A DNA stretch of 64,000 nucleotides from a virus: IMG/VR virus record IMGVR_UViG_3300027708_000019, one strand, 5' to 3'. The notes beneath the pieces are model-generated. The model was not told the origin of the DNA, did not search any database, and saw only the letters and a list, made by a program, of their open reading frames with translations. The position numbers were made by a program, and so were the translations under genes. Shown in pieces: positions 2,826-22,127 of the stretch. Every line of letters starts with the position of its first letter. Position 1 is the first letter of the stretch.

Positions 2826-3385
2826 TAATATAAATCCTTAACTTGATCACAAATCCCCAGTTTTAGTGCTTCTTTTGCACTCAACCAAACATCCTGAGGT
2901 GGGAGAAGTTTCTCACGGATAGATGGCTCATCTAGACCTGTGCACTTTTTATAATGTAACATAAGTCGTTTGGTTGTTAAATCATATTCTTTTACCGTAG
3001 CAATAAGTTCATGTTCTTTTCCGAACGAACCCCAACTATATTGATGCGATAGAATTGATGTATTTGGTGTAAGCAGACGATGTCCTTTCTCACCAGCAAT
3101 AAACATCAATAATCCAGCAGATGCAATTTGTCCAAGCCCAATAGTTCGGATTGGCGTAGCACTGCCTTTCATACAATCAATGACTGCGAAGGCAGCATTA
3201 AGATCGCCACCTGGAGAACAAATTACAAGATTAAGTAAATCGTATTGTTCTTCGCCCATGTTACAAGCAAAAATCCACTCAACAATCTGCCTACATGAAG
3301 TCATAGTAACTTCGTCCATAAATAGCAGAAAATTTTGTTTCGGGGCATTACCTGCATTCAAATTGATATTAAGTTTTTCTGTCAT
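2825..3385 (-). CDS. clpP: ATP-dependent Clp protease proteolytic subunit
   Basis: SPGG, GQIASAG (catalytic Ser), HQ, LSAKEALKLGICD motifs. Confidence 0.88.
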   Translation of the reverse strand: MTEKLNINLNAGNAPKQNFLLFMDEVTMTSCRQIVEWIFACNMGEEQYDLLNLVICSPGGDLNAAFAVIDCMKGSATPIRTIGLGQIASAGLLMFIAGEKGHRLLTPNTSILSHQYSWGSFGKEHELIATVKEYDLTTKRLMLHYKKCTGLDEPSIREKLLPPQDVWLSAKEALKLGICDQVKDLY

Positions 3386-3923
3386 TTATTGTAATCACTT
3401 TCGGGTCAGTATAAAAAATATGTCTTCCAATTTTGGTAGTTTTTTGTAACTTTGACCATCCTGGAGAGACATAGTCGGCATGATAATATATAGCACCCTT
3501 TGTTACATCATCAATAACTTGATAGTTGAAGTAAACATAAAGTGCCACTTGTCTTACATCATTATATAATTCTTTCTGTGTTGCTGATACAGCTTTCTTA
3601 CCTTCACAAAACCAAGTGAATTGGCACGTTGATTTTACTTTTTGTTTAACAACTCCGCAGACGCTGTCTTCAAACACGTTTGATTTGACACGATTTAATG
3701 TAACCAAACCTACTGCAATTTTGCCAGTCTCTGGTTCATAACCTGCTTCGTAAAATATATTATCTGTTAAACAGTCAATTTCCTTCTTCTCTTTTGCATT
3801 TAGATGTGTATATGGAACATCTACAATCTTTGTTCCTGCTTTTGAATTTTGCGTTGCGGTAAACAACAGTGCAACAAATAATATAATTGTTATTAAAATT
3901 GAAATTAGATATTTCAAAATCAT
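3369..3923 (-). CDS. cell wall hydrolase, SleB/Hydrolase_2 family
   Basis: N-terminal TM; CLTDNIFYEA, LNRV, CQFTW, YYHADYVSPGW, IGRHIFY. Confidence 0.88.
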   Translation of the reverse strand: MILKYLISILITIILFVALLFTATQNSKAGTKIVDVPYTHLNAKEKKEIDCLTDNIFYEAGYEPETGKIAVGLVTLNRVKSNVFEDSVCGVVKQKVKSTCQFTWFCEGKKAVSATQKELYNDVRQVALYVYFNYQVIDDVTKGAIYYHADYVSPGWSKLQKTTKIGRHIFYTDPKVITINDRKT

Positions 3924-4373: not shown

Positions 4374-4940
4374 TTAAAACGATCTAGTATAAGATACGTA
4401 TGTTCGATTAAAAGCATTATCACCATTTACATCATCATAGCCAAGAGAGATACTGTCTTTCTTGGTAATAGCATAACCCAATGAGTAACGAATTGAGTTT
4501 GTTGTATCTGATTTATCAGAAGCAAATGCTGTACGGAAACGATAACCAAGTTTAGCAGTCAAACCTTCAACTGGAGTTTTAACAATAACTCCTGGCTCTA
4601 CTGAGTAGTAAGCGAAATTCTTACCACCAGTAATACGCTCACCAACAGCACCACGTGCGTAACCAGTAATAAAGTTATCACCGATCAATCCCATTTTGCC
4701 TGTAACACCAGCTTCATAACGTGAGGAAACTGTATTTGCAGAATCAGTAGCTGTGTTTAGAATGCTAACATCACCATCGATTTGTTTTGTTAGAGATGTT
4801 TTAACATCTAACTTGTACACATCACTCATGGCTTTACTAGAATCTGCTTCTTGACGTCCATAAGTTACTGTTGCTGAAGTGTCGGCGAATGCCATTGAAG
4901 ATGCAGCGAGCAATGCTGCTGCGATTAGTTTTAATTTCAT
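4374..4940 (-). CDS. outer-membrane beta-barrel / porin-like protein
   Basis: Signal peptide (AFA), alternating amphipathic strands, C-terminal YxxxF BAM signal. Confidence 0.7.
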   Translation of the reverse strand: MKLKLIAAALLAASSMAFADTSATVTYGRQEADSSKAMSDVYKLDVKTSLTKQIDGDVSILNTATDSANTVSSRYEAGVTGKMGLIGDNFITGYARGAVGERITGGKNFAYYSVEPGVIVKTPVEGLTAKLGYRFRTAFASDKSDTTNSIRYSLGYAITKKDSISLGYDDVNGDNAFNRTYVSYTRSF

Positions 4941-4972
4941 GTAATATCCTTTAAAAATTCAAAAAACAAAAT

Positions 4973-5272
4973 GGCAGGTTCTTCTGTTACGAGGTGAACC
5001 TGCCGAAACCCTAAGCAGTGTTTAGGCTGCTAATGCGTAGACAGAGTCGTTTGCATTTACTTTTTTTATGCGATTTACAGTCGTCATCTACTGTGTTGCC
5101 GTCTCTACTATCTCACCCTGTCGAAACCTAGTCACCCCCATCAAAAGCACTTCTCGTTTTACATTCCCCTGAATACATCATTTCTGGTTCAGCTAATACG
5201 CAAATGCTTTTGGTGGAGGTGGGGAGAATCGAACTCCCGTCCAGAATGCCTTCGCTTTGAAGGGATTACAAC
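4973..5272 (-). ncRNA. ssrA: tmRNA, circularly permuted two-piece form
   Basis: Acceptor piece with T-arm GGGAGTTCGATTCTCCC ends CACCTCCACCA at 5211; intervening segment 5140-5210; coding piece starts GGGGGTGA..TTTCGAC at 5139; G3-U alanine pair; tag ORF 5022-5054 = ANDSVYALAA*. Confidence 0.93.
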
Positions 5273-5274
5273 AA

Positions 5275-5406
5275 TTACTTAACTGCTTGAGTGTGCTTGT
5301 GTTTCAAAGACTTCTTAAGCAGTTTCATCCAAAACTTCTTAACCTTGTCTGCTTTATGCTCGACTTCGGCTTTGTTTAGTTTTAAAATTAGTGCCTTAAC
5401 TTTCAT
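5275..5406 (-). CDS. small basic protein (43 aa, MKVKALILKLNKAE...)
   Basis: Manual translation; ATGA overlap with upstream gene stop. Confidence 0.55.
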   Translation of the reverse strand: MKVKALILKLNKAEVEHKADKVKKFWMKLLKKSLKHKHTQAVK

Positions 5407-5806: not shown

Positions 5807-6364
5807 TTATAACGTGGAACCACCTACAGGACGATTGCAAGCGCACAATTCGCCAGTCTGCAAGGCATCCAGAATTCGAAGAGTCTCATCTGGGCTTCTG
5901 CCTACATCTGTGTTGTTTATCGTCATGTGTTGAATTACATTTGCTGGGTCAATAATATATGTAGCTCTGAATGCACAACCTGTCAAATCGTTGAATGCAC
6001 CAAGTTGGTTAATTAACCCATCTGTCCATTCATTGTTCTCATTTCTAAACATGTTTCTTACTGTGTCTGCAAACATCCAACTCTTTAGATTTGTCAAAGT
6101 CATGTCCGCATTTTTCCAAGCAATTTTACAGTATTCATTATCTGTACTACCGATAAGTAATTCTGCATCACGTTTTGCGAATTCGTCATGTAGATTATCG
6201 TATCCAACAATTTCTGTTGGGCAAACAAATGTAAAATCTTTTGGATAATAAACAACGACTTTCCATTTTCCTGGAAAAGATTGTTCATTAATCTGTTCAA
6301 ATGTGTTGTCTGGTTTAACACCAACTAACACAAATGGATCTAATTGTTGTCCTAGCATTTTCAT
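5807..6364 (-). CDS. ahpC: 2-Cys peroxiredoxin (AhpC)
   Basis: YPKDFTFVCPTEI, GRSPDETLR, GELCACN. Confidence 0.9.
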   Translation of the reverse strand: MKMLGQQLDPFVLVGVKPDNTFEQINEQSFPGKWKVVVYYPKDFTFVCPTEIVGYDNLHDEFAKRDAELLIGSTDNEYCKIAWKNADMTLTNLKSWMFADTVRNMFRNENNEWTDGLINQLGAFNDLTGCAFRATYIIDPANVIQHMTINNTDVGRSPDETLRILDALQTGELCACNRPVGGSTL

Positions 6365-7011
6365 ATTTTGTAAGTCTCCTTATATGTCTTTCTCAATTCA
6401 ATAAATTTTCCAATCCACTCATCACGCTTTTCATGGAACACTAATGTTTGTTGTCCATCGACAGCCATAATAATAATTAGATTGGGAACTGAAACACCAG
6501 TTCGTTCTTCAAATGCAACAGCATACGCTGAGCATTGCATAAAATACCCATGAATATCGTCACGAGATTTCATTCTTGCTGAAGTCTTAAAGTCAATTAC
6601 TGCTTTCTTACCATTGTATTCTGCAATACAATCTACCGTTCCAGCCACTTCTAAGTGGTCAGAATATAGTGGCGACTCCAGCGCACATACGTTGTTTATT
6701 TTTTTGAGTTCTGGTAATATCTCAACCCAAGTTTCGTAGTCAACGAGATTTGGTTCAACATGTTCATTATTGAGATATGTTTCGCAGAGGGAATGAACTC
6801 TGGTTCCACGCTTTGCTGCTTTGGTGCTGATTCGATTGGCTTCTTCGTTTCCGACTCTGTTTCGCCATGCGATGATTGCTTCTTTGCCAAGCAATCCTGT
6901 AACTGTGGTGACGGAAGGATAGCGTTTACCCGACGGAGTTTCATATAGTCTTCCGTCGGGAGTATCGATGCGTGGTAGTTTGTGTAAATCATAATGTAAA
7001 TGAGTAATCAT
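6361..7011 (-). CDS. PD-(D/E)xK exonuclease (T4-like phage exonuclease)
   Basis: YPSVTT, RGTRVH, AGTVDC, IDFKTS, QCSAYA. Confidence 0.85.
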   Translation of the reverse strand: MITHLHYDLHKLPRIDTPDGRLYETPSGKRYPSVTTVTGLLGKEAIIAWRNRVGNEEANRISTKAAKRGTRVHSLCETYLNNEHVEPNLVDYETWVEILPELKKINNVCALESPLYSDHLEVAGTVDCIAEYNGKKAVIDFKTSARMKSRDDIHGYFMQCSAYAVAFEERTGVSVPNLIIIMAVDGQQTLVFHEKRDEWIGKFIELRKTYKETYKI

Positions 7012-7012
7012 A

Positions 7013-7636
7013 TTAGTCCATAGTTTGAATTGCAGCCTTACATGCGTGGAAATGATTAATGCGATCTGCTAATCCAATTTCACCACCATTGATTTTATGT
7101 GTCAATGTTTTCATGTCCTCTTGGTCAGCCCAAGTATTTAAATTATTTTTCCACCAGAACCATGCAGCTGACATAGCAGCACCTTCATATGTTTCTAGAT
7201 ACTCAACAGCTTCGTCAATAGTTAGACCAAGATCTGCTGCAAATGATTCATAGTTATTTTTACCAGTCAATTGAATTAATCCACGACCACGGTATTTGAA
7301 ACCATCACCAGATTCTTCATCGCCATTACCCATGCGATTAGCATAGACACGATTTGCGATTGCTTCTGGATTGCGTTCGTATGGTTGAGCAGCTTCTAGT
7401 GTTGGGAAATACTTATGGAAAGTACCAACCAAACCTTGTGCGCCATAATTCAAATTTTCTTTAACAGCATTGAAACCACCTGACTCATGACCAACTTGTG
7501 CTAAGAAACAAGCAAGTCTTGATGTTCCAGTAATGTCATATGTTGTGCAAGCAGTAGTTAAACCCTCAACGAAACCTTGTAGTTTCTCTGGCTTTGTTTG
7601 TGGTGCGATCGTTTGTAATAGTTGTAAGGTGATCAT
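7013..7636 (-). CDS. glycoside hydrolase family 19 endolysin
   Basis: FLAQVGHES, ENLNY, YRGRGLIQLTG, INGG. Confidence 0.88.
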   Translation of the reverse strand: MITLQLLQTIAPQTKPEKLQGFVEGLTTACTTYDITGTSRLACFLAQVGHESGGFNAVKENLNYGAQGLVGTFHKYFPTLEAAQPYERNPEAIANRVYANRMGNGDEESGDGFKYRGRGLIQLTGKNNYESFAADLGLTIDEAVEYLETYEGAAMSAAWFWWKNNLNTWADQEDMKTLTHKINGGEIGLADRINHFHACKAAIQTMD

Positions 7637-8400
7637 CTCTTATCCTCGTAATCTTCGTATTTTAATTTAGCCAAGATATAATCTTTGACTAGCGATGAGC
7701 GAACAATGTCATCTACGGTAAATTCAATTCTAGTAAATGCTTTCATGTGTTGGGCAATATCAAAGAATTTTAAAATACCACTAACATCGGTCTTACGTTT
7801 ATTTAGGTCGGTCTGACGATAGTCGCCACACCAAATAATTTTAGACATATGTCCAACACGTGTCATAACAGTATCAATCTCATCATAATTTAAATTCTGC
7901 ATTTCATCAACGATAATGATAGCGTTGTCGAAAGACATACCACGAATAAATGAAGTAGAAATAAATTGAATATAACCTTGCTCTTCCAATCTATCCCATG
8001 CATCCTTACGATCAAATAACTGATGGCAAATCTGACGATAGGGTTGTTCGTAGATTTCCATTTTCTCACCAACATCTCCTGGTAGATGTCCCATTTCTCG
8101 AGACTGTACCGCAGAGCGAACAACAATAATTTTATTGAATGGGTTACTTTTATCTAACACTTCTTCGATTGCTTTGTATAAAGCAATAAAAGTTTTTCCT
8201 GTTCCTGCTACACCATGTAATGCTATAAAATAATCACCTTGTTTATATGCGTCGAAGAATCCTTTTTGATTTGATGTTAATGGCTGAAAAGTTTTTAAAT
8301 TATCTAATCTCAGCTTTAACTGATTACTCGCTACTGGTTTGGTTTCACGTTCTTCATAATGTATGTCTACTATTTTCTTAGCTGCAGAAGTGCGTGCCAT
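7633..8400 (-). CDS. phoH: PhoH-like ATPase
   Basis: GVAGTGKT, GHLPG, RGMSF, DEMQN, GDYRQTD, DIVRS. Confidence 0.92.
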   Translation of the reverse strand: MARTSAAKKIVDIHYEERETKPVASNQLKLRLDNLKTFQPLTSNQKGFFDAYKQGDYFIALHGVAGTGKTFIALYKAIEEVLDKSNPFNKIIVVRSAVQSREMGHLPGDVGEKMEIYEQPYRQICHQLFDRKDAWDRLEEQGYIQFISTSFIRGMSFDNAIIIVDEMQNLNYDEIDTVMTRVGHMSKIIWCGDYRQTDLNKRKTDVSGILKFFDIAQHMKAFTRIEFTVDDIVRSSLVKDYILAKLKYEDYEDKR

Positions 8401-8651: not shown

Positions 8652-9335
8652 TTATTTAGTCAGGTAAGTGCGATTTAGCATAGTATGATTGTGGTCAGTT
8701 GGACCCCAATCGCCATCTGGGTGATAAGCCAAAACAACCATCTCTTGTCCAGTTGTGACAAATCTATGTTTCTCTTGTTGTTCTATACAGAAAATAGCAC
8801 CAGTTTCTAATTGAATACTTGTTTCTGTGATGTCACCATCATCATTTTTCCAAGGATTGATTGTAGCATAACCAGTTCCTCTCACAACTATACCAAATCT
8901 GATACTTGGGTGTGTATGATAAGACTGCTCAGTACCTTTCGGAAAATGTAACATATTCAATGATGGATCACCAAGTCTTGATGGATAGATTAGCAATGAA
9001 TCTGAACATCCATCAATGTATGATAGACGACCACGTTCTTCTAGTGGACCACCAATTATATTTTGCCCACGATATCCGATGCGTGTAAACACAGCAACCT
9101 TACCTACGTAAAATAGTTTTTCATGATCATGTGACCAGTAACAGAAATAATCTCCCTGCGTAGCAACTTTACCATTTGGGAAATTAACATCGCCTTCGAT
9201 CACATAACCATAGATTGTTGAATACTCTTTTGTATAAAAATATCCTTGGTCACCAATTTCATTAATGTCAAAAAGATTCGCAATAGATGGATACATAGTA
9301 TCAGATCTATCGATATATGTTTGTCCAGTAATCAT
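8652..9335 (-). CDS. cupin-domain protein
   Basis: HTHPSIRFG..GTG and HRF motifs. Confidence 0.7.
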   Translation of the reverse strand: MITGQTYIDRSDTMYPSIANLFDINEIGDQGYFYTKEYSTIYGYVIEGDVNFPNGKVATQGDYFCYWSHDHEKLFYVGKVAVFTRIGYRGQNIIGGPLEERGRLSYIDGCSDSLLIYPSRLGDPSLNMLHFPKGTEQSYHTHPSIRFGIVVRGTGYATINPWKNDDGDITETSIQLETGAIFCIEQQEKHRFVTTGQEMVVLAYHPDGDWGPTDHNHTMLNRTYLTK

Positions 9336-18573: not shown

Positions 18574-18901
18574 TAACTTTCTCCTTAAATAATAATTCGG
18601 AACCTTCTGCTACTAGTGCTTTCTTACCAGGAAATCTTTTACTGAAGATAGAATTTATCTCAATTAAATCTTTGCCTTGACAAACAAATTCACTTGTGTG
18701 TTTGTCATACAAAAAGAACATTTCATTCTGTTTCTCTACAGTAACAACCATAATATGTTCTTTATAGAGTCTCTGCGCTTCAGCAAGGGACTCAGCAATT
18801 TCTTCACGTATTAGTTTCCTTGCCTGATGTTTTGCGTATAAATGAATAAACCAAAAAACATTAGCAATCAAAAATAATAGAGTGAGAATTGTTTCCATCA
18901 A
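18566..18901 (-). CDS. membrane-anchored hypothetical protein
   Basis: N-terminal TM; coupled ORF. Confidence 0.6.
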   Translation of the reverse strand: MMETILTLLFLIANVFWFIHLYAKHQARKLIREEIAESLAEAQRLYKEHIMVVTVEKQNEMFFLYDKHTSEFVCQGKDLIEINSIFSKRFPGKKALVAEGSELLFKEKVNE

Positions 18902-19566
18902 AACAGATCTCCTGTTGTGTCCTCTTCTTCATCAGGATAGTGTTTAACTTCCCATTTGAGAACTGCTAAATCTTGTTGCACCTCAGTGTCAATCCAACCT
19001 TCATTTCCACTGCAGTACCAATCAAGATAATCACCAGTACACAGAATATCAGCAACAAGACCGCCAGTTGATCTCCAGCTGTAGCTGATTACTTGACCAT
19101 CTTTGTGTAGTTGATTGTTGCACAATGTAGAATAGAAACGCTTGCAATAATCTTTGCTAGTGCGCATCTTAAGTTTGATTGTTGTGCTATCTTGAATATC
19201 TCTAAACAAATTGATACGATTGTTATCTACATGGTCAGTGTCATCCTCAACAAAAGATTGTTGTTTTTCTTTCGCCTCAGCCATTTCTTGATAGAATTTT
19301 TCCATCCACTTTTCGCGATTACGAATTCCCAACTTAGATTTGATGACATCAAAGAAACTTAGAAATTGTTCAAACTGCTCTTCTTCAAAAAACATTTCAG
19401 TTTTATTGAATTTCAGTTTACCTTCTTTGTCATGGCTTCCCAAAATAACATGTGTCAAACCATGACCAATCTCAAATACATTTACGTAAGTGATTGTATC
19501 GCCATGATCGATTTCAAGGTGTTCGTGTAGGGTGTTATCAAGTTCAGATTGGAATTGATTTAGCAC
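18898..19566 (-). CDS. hypothetical protein
   Basis: GTG start with AAGGAG RBS; SWRSTGG..GDYLDWYCSG. Confidence 0.7.
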   Translation of the reverse strand: MLNQFQSELDNTLHEHLEIDHGDTITYVNVFEIGHGLTHVILGSHDKEGKLKFNKTEMFFEEEQFEQFLSFFDVIKSKLGIRNREKWMEKFYQEMAEAKEKQQSFVEDDTDHVDNNRINLFRDIQDSTTIKLKMRTSKDYCKRFYSTLCNNQLHKDGQVISYSWRSTGGLVADILCTGDYLDWYCSGNEGWIDTEVQQDLAVLKWEVKHYPDEEEDTTGDLF

Positions 19567-19693
19567 GATGTTTCTCCTTACGTTTATATTGCTTCTTACT
19601 TAACTCAACTCTTTGACGATATTTTGATGTGCGCAGATCTTTAGCAATCCAATTTCTTGGCTTACTTGACTGTATAACCAGCGTGCATTCCAT
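19544..19693 (-). CDS. ArfA-like alternative ribosome-rescue peptide (49 aa)
   Basis: Manual translation MECTLVIQSSKPRNWIAKDLRTSKYRQRVELSKKQYKRKEKHRAKSIPI; N-x-I..L..YRQRVE..KK..YxRKxKH resembles ArfA core. Confidence 0.6.
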   Translation of the reverse strand: MECTLVIQSSKPRNWIAKDLRTSKYRQRVELSKKQYKRKEKHRAKSIPI

Positions 19694-19847
19694 ACCCATC
19701 ATCGTGTCCCTTTGCGTAATGAACAGAAGTCAGTGCTCTTAGAAACTCTGACAACTCCTTATATTTTACCTCGCCCAAGGTATTTTCGTCAAGTCCTAAA
19801 ATCGAAACTATTTTAGAACAAGCATGATCAACCTCATGCGGATACAT
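19662..19847 (-). CDS. hypothetical protein
   Basis: Likely start MYPHEVD. Confidence 0.55.
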   Translation of the reverse strand: MYPHEVDHACSKIVSILGLDENTLGEVKYKELSEFLRALTSVHYAKGHDDGYGMHAGYTVK

Positions 19848-20058
19848 CTTCTTTTTCTCTCTTGAATGATTGACGCTTTGCTGCTTCTTCAGACAGCTGA
19901 GCACTAATCATCGCACGTTTAAATGCAGATCTATCTTCTTCAGATTTAAACTTACCCAAAGCAAGATATCGTTTTGTTTGTTTATGCATTTTAAAATTCT
20001 TATCTGGCTTCAATTCGAAGGGGATATAAACTTCATGTGTTTTTTGTTTCTTTGCCAT
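19834..20058 (-). CDS. small basic hypothetical protein
   Basis: AAGGA RBS. Confidence 0.6.
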   Translation of the reverse strand: MAKKQKTHEVYIPFELKPDKNFKMHKQTKRYLALGKFKSEEDRSAFKRAMISAQLSEEAAKRQSFKREKEDVSA

Positions 20059-21900: not shown

Positions 21901-21929
21901 ATTATACCTCAGATAAGATTAAAAGTCAA
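21901..21929 (-). promoter_or_regulatory. sigma70-type promoter
   Basis: TTGACT-N17-TATAAT. Confidence 0.8.
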
Positions 21930-22098: not shown

Positions 22099-22127
22099 AT
22101 TATACTCCGAATTCGTTTAAATGTCAA
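22099..22127 (-). promoter_or_regulatory. sigma70-type promoter
   Basis: TTGACA-N17-TATAAT. Confidence 0.85.

Follow-up and report, generated by a model that had tools for sequence, protein, structure and literature searches.

Can a phage supply its own peptide for release factor-dependent ribosome rescue, and does such a peptide work beside a phage-encoded tmRNA and protease? The question arises from a short ORF on the minus strand of a viral record from IMG/VR (IMGVR_UViG_3300027708_000019), analysed here as a stretch of 64,000 nucleotides that we refer to as the window. The original prediction, made by eye, was that an unannotated 49-aa ORF at 19544-19693 resembles the core of Escherichia coli ArfA and that, with a tmRNA and a ClpP encoded in the same window, it forms a kit for ribosome rescue and protein degradation.

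An overlapping gene conserved among related phages

The ORF lies on the minus strand between two genes with no assigned function, and overlaps both of them:

19662-19904, minus strand: upstream 80-aa gene, no assigned function; overlaps the ArfA-like gene by its final 41 nt in a different frame
19707-19712, minus strand: Shine-Dalgarno-like AAGGGA, read from the sequence
19544-19702, minus strand: ArfA-like small gene of the DUF7230 type, 52 aa from the first ATG and 51 aa from the ATG at 19699; the TGA stop is 19544-19546
18898-19566, minus strand: downstream 222-aa gene with a GTG start, no assigned function; overlaps the last 23 nt of the ArfA-like gene

Three in-frame ATG codons are available, at 19702, at 19699, and at the start of the 49-aa version. 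The frame first proposed is thus real, but its start lies two to three codons too far downstream: the Met of the third ATG is replaced by Thr in relatives, which retain the first Met or the first two. Because AAGGGA stands 4 nt before the ATG at 19702 and 7 nt before that at 19699, one of these two is most likely the start, and an equivalent AAGG precedes the gene in all six relatives. The out-of-frame overlap with the upstream gene (19662-19702) is itself conserved in relatives, where it measures 38-41 nt, and both frames are open in 6/6 of them. In seven of seven genomes, the Shine-Dalgarno sequence and start codons are embedded in the coding sequence for a GHDDGY-type conserved C-terminal motif of the 80-aa protein.

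Among 5.8 billion proteins searched, 11 are close homologues (48-52 aa, 69-100% identical, 30 invariant columns), and the same protein collection contains an identical 52-aa protein with a precomputed match to DUF7230 (PF23876); some pipeline has therefore already called this ORF as a gene. In IMG/VR, relatives of the ArfA-like protein are encoded at 46 loci. The six closest distinct contigs share a gene order consisting of a metallophosphoesterase, genes for proteins of 111, 95, 74 and 80 aa, the ArfA-like gene, and genes for proteins of 222, 111 and 153 aa (the first 111-aa gene is absent from two of the six). Across these contigs the ArfA-like protein is 70-82% identical, compared with 41-81% for the neighbouring proteins. 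Whole-gene pairwise dN/dS ranges from 0.11 to 0.33, and mean dN divided by mean dS is 0.10 for the core (Ser13-Arg46), with 11, 4 and 18 variable sites at first, second and third codon positions, respectively, and thus mostly at third positions. As judged by these substitution patterns, the gene is under purifying selection in the six related phage contigs. The conservation on which the original prediction depended is therefore present, both in position and in the coding signal. It is almost inconceivable that there is no gene here and that the frame is open by chance between or across real genes, since a very short ORF that overlaps its neighbours by 41 nt upstream and 23 nt downstream might suggest as much, but this one stays open at such identity in six diverged relatives, has a core dN/dS of 0.10, belongs to a family of 418 clusters at E<=1e-3 and has homologues in cells. 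By its conservation, the ORF is a genuine phage gene, and a chance ORF is excluded.

DUF7230 and ArfA as one superfamily

In Pfam terms, the window protein falls closest to DUF7230, for which it scores 25.0 bits (E 2.1e-5) against a cut-off of 27 bits. Three close homologues that were scanned score 29.7-32.4 bits, above that cut-off, and all 11 carry the domain in the protein collection. A literature search found no paper that mentions DUF7230. The window protein matches only an unnamed family in PHROGs, and NCBIfam holds no model for it, nor for E. coli ArfA; the JGI product name of two close homologues is ArfA.

Direct comparison with ArfA gives a mixed picture. BLASTP against the annotated K-12 record reproduced the alignment first made by eye, with 15/32 identical residues, one three-residue gap and an E-value of 1e-4 for this single comparison. 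Against the ArfA model PF03889 (gathering score 25.5 bits), the window protein has no match at E<=10, a close homologue (P0005) reaches 10.8 bits, and a six-frame search of the nearest phage record yields no PF03889 match. With the single window protein as query, phmmer finds only a chance match to HmuY in the PDB, so the link to ArfA needs a profile. When a profile built from the 11 close homologues is run against the whole set of PDB sequences, the six best matches are all ArfA (E 1.4e-3 to 2.5e-3), with the next at E ~0.9. HMMER over 1.84 billion cluster representatives recovered 418 clusters at E<=1e-3, nearly all of 37-70 aa, from which we built a broad profile of 101 DUF7230-type proteins, none with a GKG-type motif. 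At E<0.01, ArfA is the only PDB match of this broad profile (best E 5.7e-4), and hhalign aligns the profile with 15 enterobacterial ArfA sequences at a probability of 91.5% (E 8.4e-7) over 40 columns that cover ArfA residues 11-53. The HHpred- or HMMER-type check proposed at the outset thus comes out in favour of ArfA at the level of the family, by hhalign and by the PDB search, but not for the window protein against PF03889 itself. From the side of ArfA, arfA is the best DUF7230 match when the complete E. coli K-12 chromosome is translated in six frames, although its E-value alone is not significant, and DUF7230 is the second Pfam match of E. coli ArfA. A language-model look-up, which we treat as a lead only, also includes clusters of both DUF7230 and ArfA in its nearest neighbours.

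Bridging sequences join the two families. These relatives, recovered by means of motifs from the DUF7230 family itself, combine an N-terminal block of the DUF7230 type (AKDLRTPKY type) with the KGKGS block of ArfA. Phage ORFs at loci L036 and L046 score 41.4 and 37.7 bits against PF03889 (cut-off 25.5), an ORF at L028 matches both DUF7230 and PF03889, and three cluster representatives likewise combine the N-terminal block with KGKGS. The combination is also found in chromosomal ORFs of Pelagibacteraceae (SAR11); one of them, L064:2998-3111, scores 32.1 bits against PF03889 and lies among ordinary cellular genes (L,D-transpeptidase, response regulator, PfkB kinase and endonuclease III). Placed in a single alignment, these sequences grade from E. 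coli ArfA into the window protein.

Could the likeness instead be convergent or compositional, the product of a basic nucleic acid-binding or otherwise unrelated small phage protein? The window protein is short, rich in lysine and arginine, and likely disordered; the resemblance is confined to some 40 residues of a basic peptide, the E-values are modest, and the profile searches also return weak matches to basic ribosomal proteins. Real ArfA, however, scores 22.8 bits on the family profile, compared with a maximum of 10.7 bits among 2000 shuffles that preserve composition, so that 0/2000 reach the real score and composition does not explain the similarity. ArfA also leads the next-best PDB sequences by about 9 bits, BLASTP, HMMER and hhalign arrive at the same alignment, and graded intermediates connect DUF7230 with ArfA. 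An unrelated protein is, in light of these comparisons, improbable. Homology of the window protein to ArfA is supported by the same comparisons, which place it as a divergent, minimal, GKG-less branch of the ArfA superfamily; on the evidence of profiles and intermediates, DUF7230 and ArfA are one superfamily.

ArfA features kept and lost

ArfA is ordered only on the ribosome. The part that is active and visible by cryo-EM is 46-55 residues long (PMC8012679; PMC6299226), and the window protein, at about 50 aa, matches this mature, active length. In ArfA, the strand Q27-E30 pairs with RF2 domain II/IV, and F25 enters the V198/F217 pocket of RF2 (PMC8012679; PMC6299226). Residues Y28-R-Q-R-V-E33 of the window protein align with F25-R-Q-R-V-E30 of ArfA, with an identical QRVE and with Tyr28 in place of F25, a position at which an aromatic residue is nearly invariant across the DUF7230 family. 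The Lys-His pair of ArfA binds a pocket of the mRNA entry channel (PMC8012679), and R41-K-E-K44-H45 of the window protein, invariant in the 11 close homologues, aligns with ArfA R41-K-G-K44-H45. Asn14, Ile16 and Leu20 of the short ArfA helix are also common to the window protein.

Other features are missing or altered. Every alignment of the window protein with ArfA has a three-residue gap at GKG; the channel motif is therefore shortened, as had been noticed, but by these three residues and not by the GKGS segment originally named. The KGKGS of ArfA lies in the mRNA channel, where no single residue of the motif is essential (PMC6299226). Another change concerns ArfA Ala18, at which an A18T substitution causes a steric clash that abolishes RF2 activation, but not binding (PMC8012679). 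The window protein has Lys21 in place of this small residue. Lys is almost invariant at the position across the family, and the SAR11 proteins that score above the ArfA cut-off share it. If the RF2-activating helix acts at all, its packing must therefore differ. The window protein has no counterpart of ArfA residues 1-10, and the hydrophobic C-terminal tail is absent, as first observed, the protein ending at the length of mature ArfA.

Taken together, the window protein shares with ArfA of gamma- and beta-proteobacteria (YhdL; PF03889; PDB 5MDV, 5U4I, 5H5U and 5MGP) the arginine, the aromatic residue and QRVE, as well as the Y.RK.KH basic end. It differs in the loss of GKG, in the change of Ala18 to Lys, in having no residues 1-10, no tail and no 3' hairpin, and in being encoded by a phage.

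Small rescue peptides outside the ArfA family provide a further comparison. BrfA of Bacillus and ArfT of Francisella are, like the window protein, small and basic, and BrfA shares the KH motif. Both occupy the vacant mRNA channel and bring in a release factor, which for ArfT can be RF1 as well. Unlike the ArfA resemblance, these likenesses extend to no detected sequence relationship. A size of about 40 aa had suggested ArfT as the true family, which was rejected because ArfT is a member of a KGG-repeat family and its motif is KKGGSTNKK.

Predicted expression without tmRNA control

In E. coli, arfA is expressed as a non-stop mRNA that ends at a 3' hairpin (through RNase III or termination) and is repressed by tmRNA, whereas the window gene ends in a normal stop, TGA at codon 53. 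No stable fold of the arfA-type hairpin was found at the phage gene (z +0.85 versus shuffles), while E. coli arfA shows the expected long stem. With a normal stop and no 3' hairpin, the ArfA-like protein would therefore escape repression by trans-translation. In this respect it would resemble ArfT, which is apparently also without arfA-style regulation by transcription termination and RNase III cleavage.

Candidate promoters lie upstream of the gene:

22099-22127, minus strand: perfect sigma-70 consensus promoter, TTGACA-17-TATAAT (12/12), heading the minus-strand block to which the ArfA-like gene belongs; a consensus match only
21901-21929, minus strand: sigma-70 site (11/12) at the head of the same block of small genes; a consensus match only
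19763-19792: sigma-70 site (10/12); a consensus match only

In total, sigma-70 sites are no more numerous than expected from shuffles. T4 late-promoter motifs show no enrichment, and none occurs near the ArfA-like gene. This promoter pattern suggests that the gene may be expressed early.

A phage tmRNA and ClpP that would depend on host partners

Two further components of the proposed kit are encoded elsewhere in the window:

4931-5321, minus strand: two-piece (permuted) tmRNA with tag ANDSVYALAA
2825-3385, minus strand: ClpP homologue of 186 aa

The tmRNA was detected by ARAGORN and matches Rfam models beta_tmRNA (RF01850, 151.9 bits) and tmRNA_permuted (RF04321, 147.9 bits), and is therefore of the two-piece kind. 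It is of the betaproteobacterial two-piece type, and the tags of related phages end in ALAA, with one in LMAA; this type may hint at the host lineage. According to the Melnitz paper, about 2% of phage genomes encode a tmRNA, and the two-piece type is typical of aquatic myophages; ArfA and ClpP are unmentioned there. Genes around the tmRNA encode a SleB-type cell-wall hydrolase (3369-3923), an AhpC/peroxiredoxin (5807-6364), a PD-(D/E)XK nuclease (6361-7011), PhoH (7633-8400) and a cupin (8652-9335).

ClpP lies about 1.55 kb from the tmRNA and scores 98.6 bits against PF00574. It is 31% identical to E. coli ClpP, with which its Ser-His-Asp triad aligns, the GQxAS, HQ and D positions being kept. 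PHROGs also lists ClpP-like head-maturation proteases for it. Because a separate prohead protease of the T4 gp21 type is present in three related genomes (90-100% complete), the window ClpP is, from this gene content, not the head protease. Both the tmRNA with its LAA degron and a clpP some 1.6 kb away, as originally predicted, are thus confirmed.

The ArfA-like gene, the two-piece tmRNA and ClpP occur together in 4/4 related contigs tested, three of which are at least 90% complete, and ClpP lies about 1-2 kb from the tmRNA. A search of four related contigs found no SmpB and no class-I release factor, and related contigs contain no Clp ATPase domain (PF07724) above cut-off, with sub-threshold AAA matches in frames of 317-321 aa. 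From these absences we infer that the phage tmRNA, ArfA-like protein and ClpP would depend on host SmpB, RF2, and ClpX or ClpA, respectively. The 188-aa gene beside the tmRNA (4374-4940) was considered as a hidden SmpB and rejected, as no recognisable family was found for it.

The idea of a kit holds in part. The trio recurs in every related contig tested, but a phage that is 84% complete (L030, record G008, 49.9 kb) has the ArfA-like gene without a tmRNA; both Pfam families are matched on the near-identical copy at L028. The ArfA-like peptide therefore also travels without tmRNA, and the kit is not obligatory.

Relatives in SAR11, SAR86 and other phages

ArfA has been regarded, in reviews and in a 2024 survey (PMC11633108), as confined to gamma- and some beta-proteobacteria, in addition to the Bacillus species that bear BrfA; the survey found arfA in 0 of 2,376 alphaproteobacterial genomes (PMC11633108). 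Our sample of the SAR11 family (genomes G014 and G045-G084; loci include L064, L065, L066 and L073) differs from this picture. In 30/41 Pelagibacteraceae genomes, a single-copy short ORF (frames of 35-70 aa) matches PF03889, in 21 of them above the cut-off. The short ArfA-like proteins of SAR11 and phages (L064, L066, L073, L036 and L046) resemble the window protein in their AKDLRTPKY-type N-terminal motif, short length (35-40 aa) and normal stop. Unlike the window protein, they keep KGKGS and pass the ArfA Pfam cut-off, and many are without the final KH.

In the SAR86 family, 14/30 genomes match DUF7230. A GKG-less gene of the DUF7230 type lies directly after tatC (L051:3013-3144). Because two SAR86 genomes that were checked, both incomplete, have no separate match to the ArfA model, this may be the only ArfA-like gene of SAR86.

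Among deposited phages, a megablast of the region returned nothing. A tblastn search against 50,697 phage records gave one weak match for the window protein (E 5e-3) and none for a central family member; the window-type protein is therefore without a clear counterpart in these records. ArfA-like ORFs, hypothetical or unannotated, do occur in three cultured phages, which infect Microcystis (PP438418.1, 36211-36357), Roseobacter (MZ892988.1, 39082-39180) and Erythrobacter (OL955261.1, 144107-144211). A phage-borne ArfA is also not unprecedented by name. For example, gp10 of Citromicrobium phage vB_CbaS-RXM has been annotated in passing as ArfA among translation-related auxiliary genes, with no mention of a tmRNA (PMC8953757); we liken it to the window gene, as a phage gene, by name only.

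Proposed mechanism

We consider it fairly probable that the window protein is an ArfA-type rescue factor, made without tmRNA control and acting via host RF2. Under this proposal, drawn by analogy with E. coli ArfA, the protein would bind a 30S subunit that has stalled on reaching the 3' end of a truncated message, its basic C-terminal third (KK..Y.RKEKH, Lys-His pair included) being inserted into the vacant mRNA entry channel. The YRQRVE segment in the middle of the protein would pair as an extra beta-strand with domain II/IV of host RF2, Tyr28 standing where ArfA has Phe25, and the preceding short helix would help to hold RF2 open, so allowing the GGQ loop to release the peptide. The factor would be made regardless of the status of trans-translation, probably early in infection, and would act alongside the phage two-piece tmRNA (with host SmpB) and the phage ClpP (with a host Clp ATPase). 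Ribosome binding, use of RF2, timing and benefit to the phage are what we infer. It is plausible that such a putative kit might counter host RNA-cleaving toxins.

A different outcome of the same ancestry has to be weighed, in which the protein descends from ArfA and binds ribosomes but fails to activate RF2. Such a protein would occupy the empty channel and compete with host SmpB-tmRNA or ArfA, either steering stalled ribosomes to the phage tmRNA or blocking a host response, or else it would use a partner other than RF2, for example RF1. The best conserved features are indeed the channel-binding C-terminal part and its KH, the N-terminal helix differs, carrying Lys in place of Ala18, a residue whose change to Thr already prevents activation while leaving binding intact, and ArfT shows that small rescue peptides can use RF1 too. 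The QRVE strand and the aromatic residue before it are, however, also conserved, and these serve recruitment of RF2 and not ribosome binding. Moreover, in SAR11 the same Lys-containing helix occurs in proteins that match the ArfA model above its cut-off and are encoded by single-copy cellular genes, a better fit to a working rescue factor than to an inhibitor. For these reasons we regard the binder as unlikely, if still deserving of attention, and favour a rescue factor that works through RF2.

More tentatively, and with less confidence than we have in the rescue function itself, DUF7230 could represent an unrecognised and widespread branch of release factor-dependent rescue, with a housekeeping role in SAR86, KGKGS-bearing cousins in SAR11 and repeated capture by phages. 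The phage clade studied here would then express one such factor early, free of tmRNA control and alongside a tmRNA and ClpP of its own, perhaps in order to recycle ribosomes stranded by host mRNA decay or by RNA-cleaving defences.

Significance

ArfA has been described as a gamma- and beta-proteobacterial backup that is kept off by trans-translation. Here, a shortened relative that appears to be free of that control is encoded by a virus, together with a tmRNA and a protease. If the proposed role is correct, the Pfam family DUF7230 would gain a function, and the range of release factor-dependent rescue would extend to abundant, streamlined bacteria and their phages. Large phages would then supply their own ribosome rescue.
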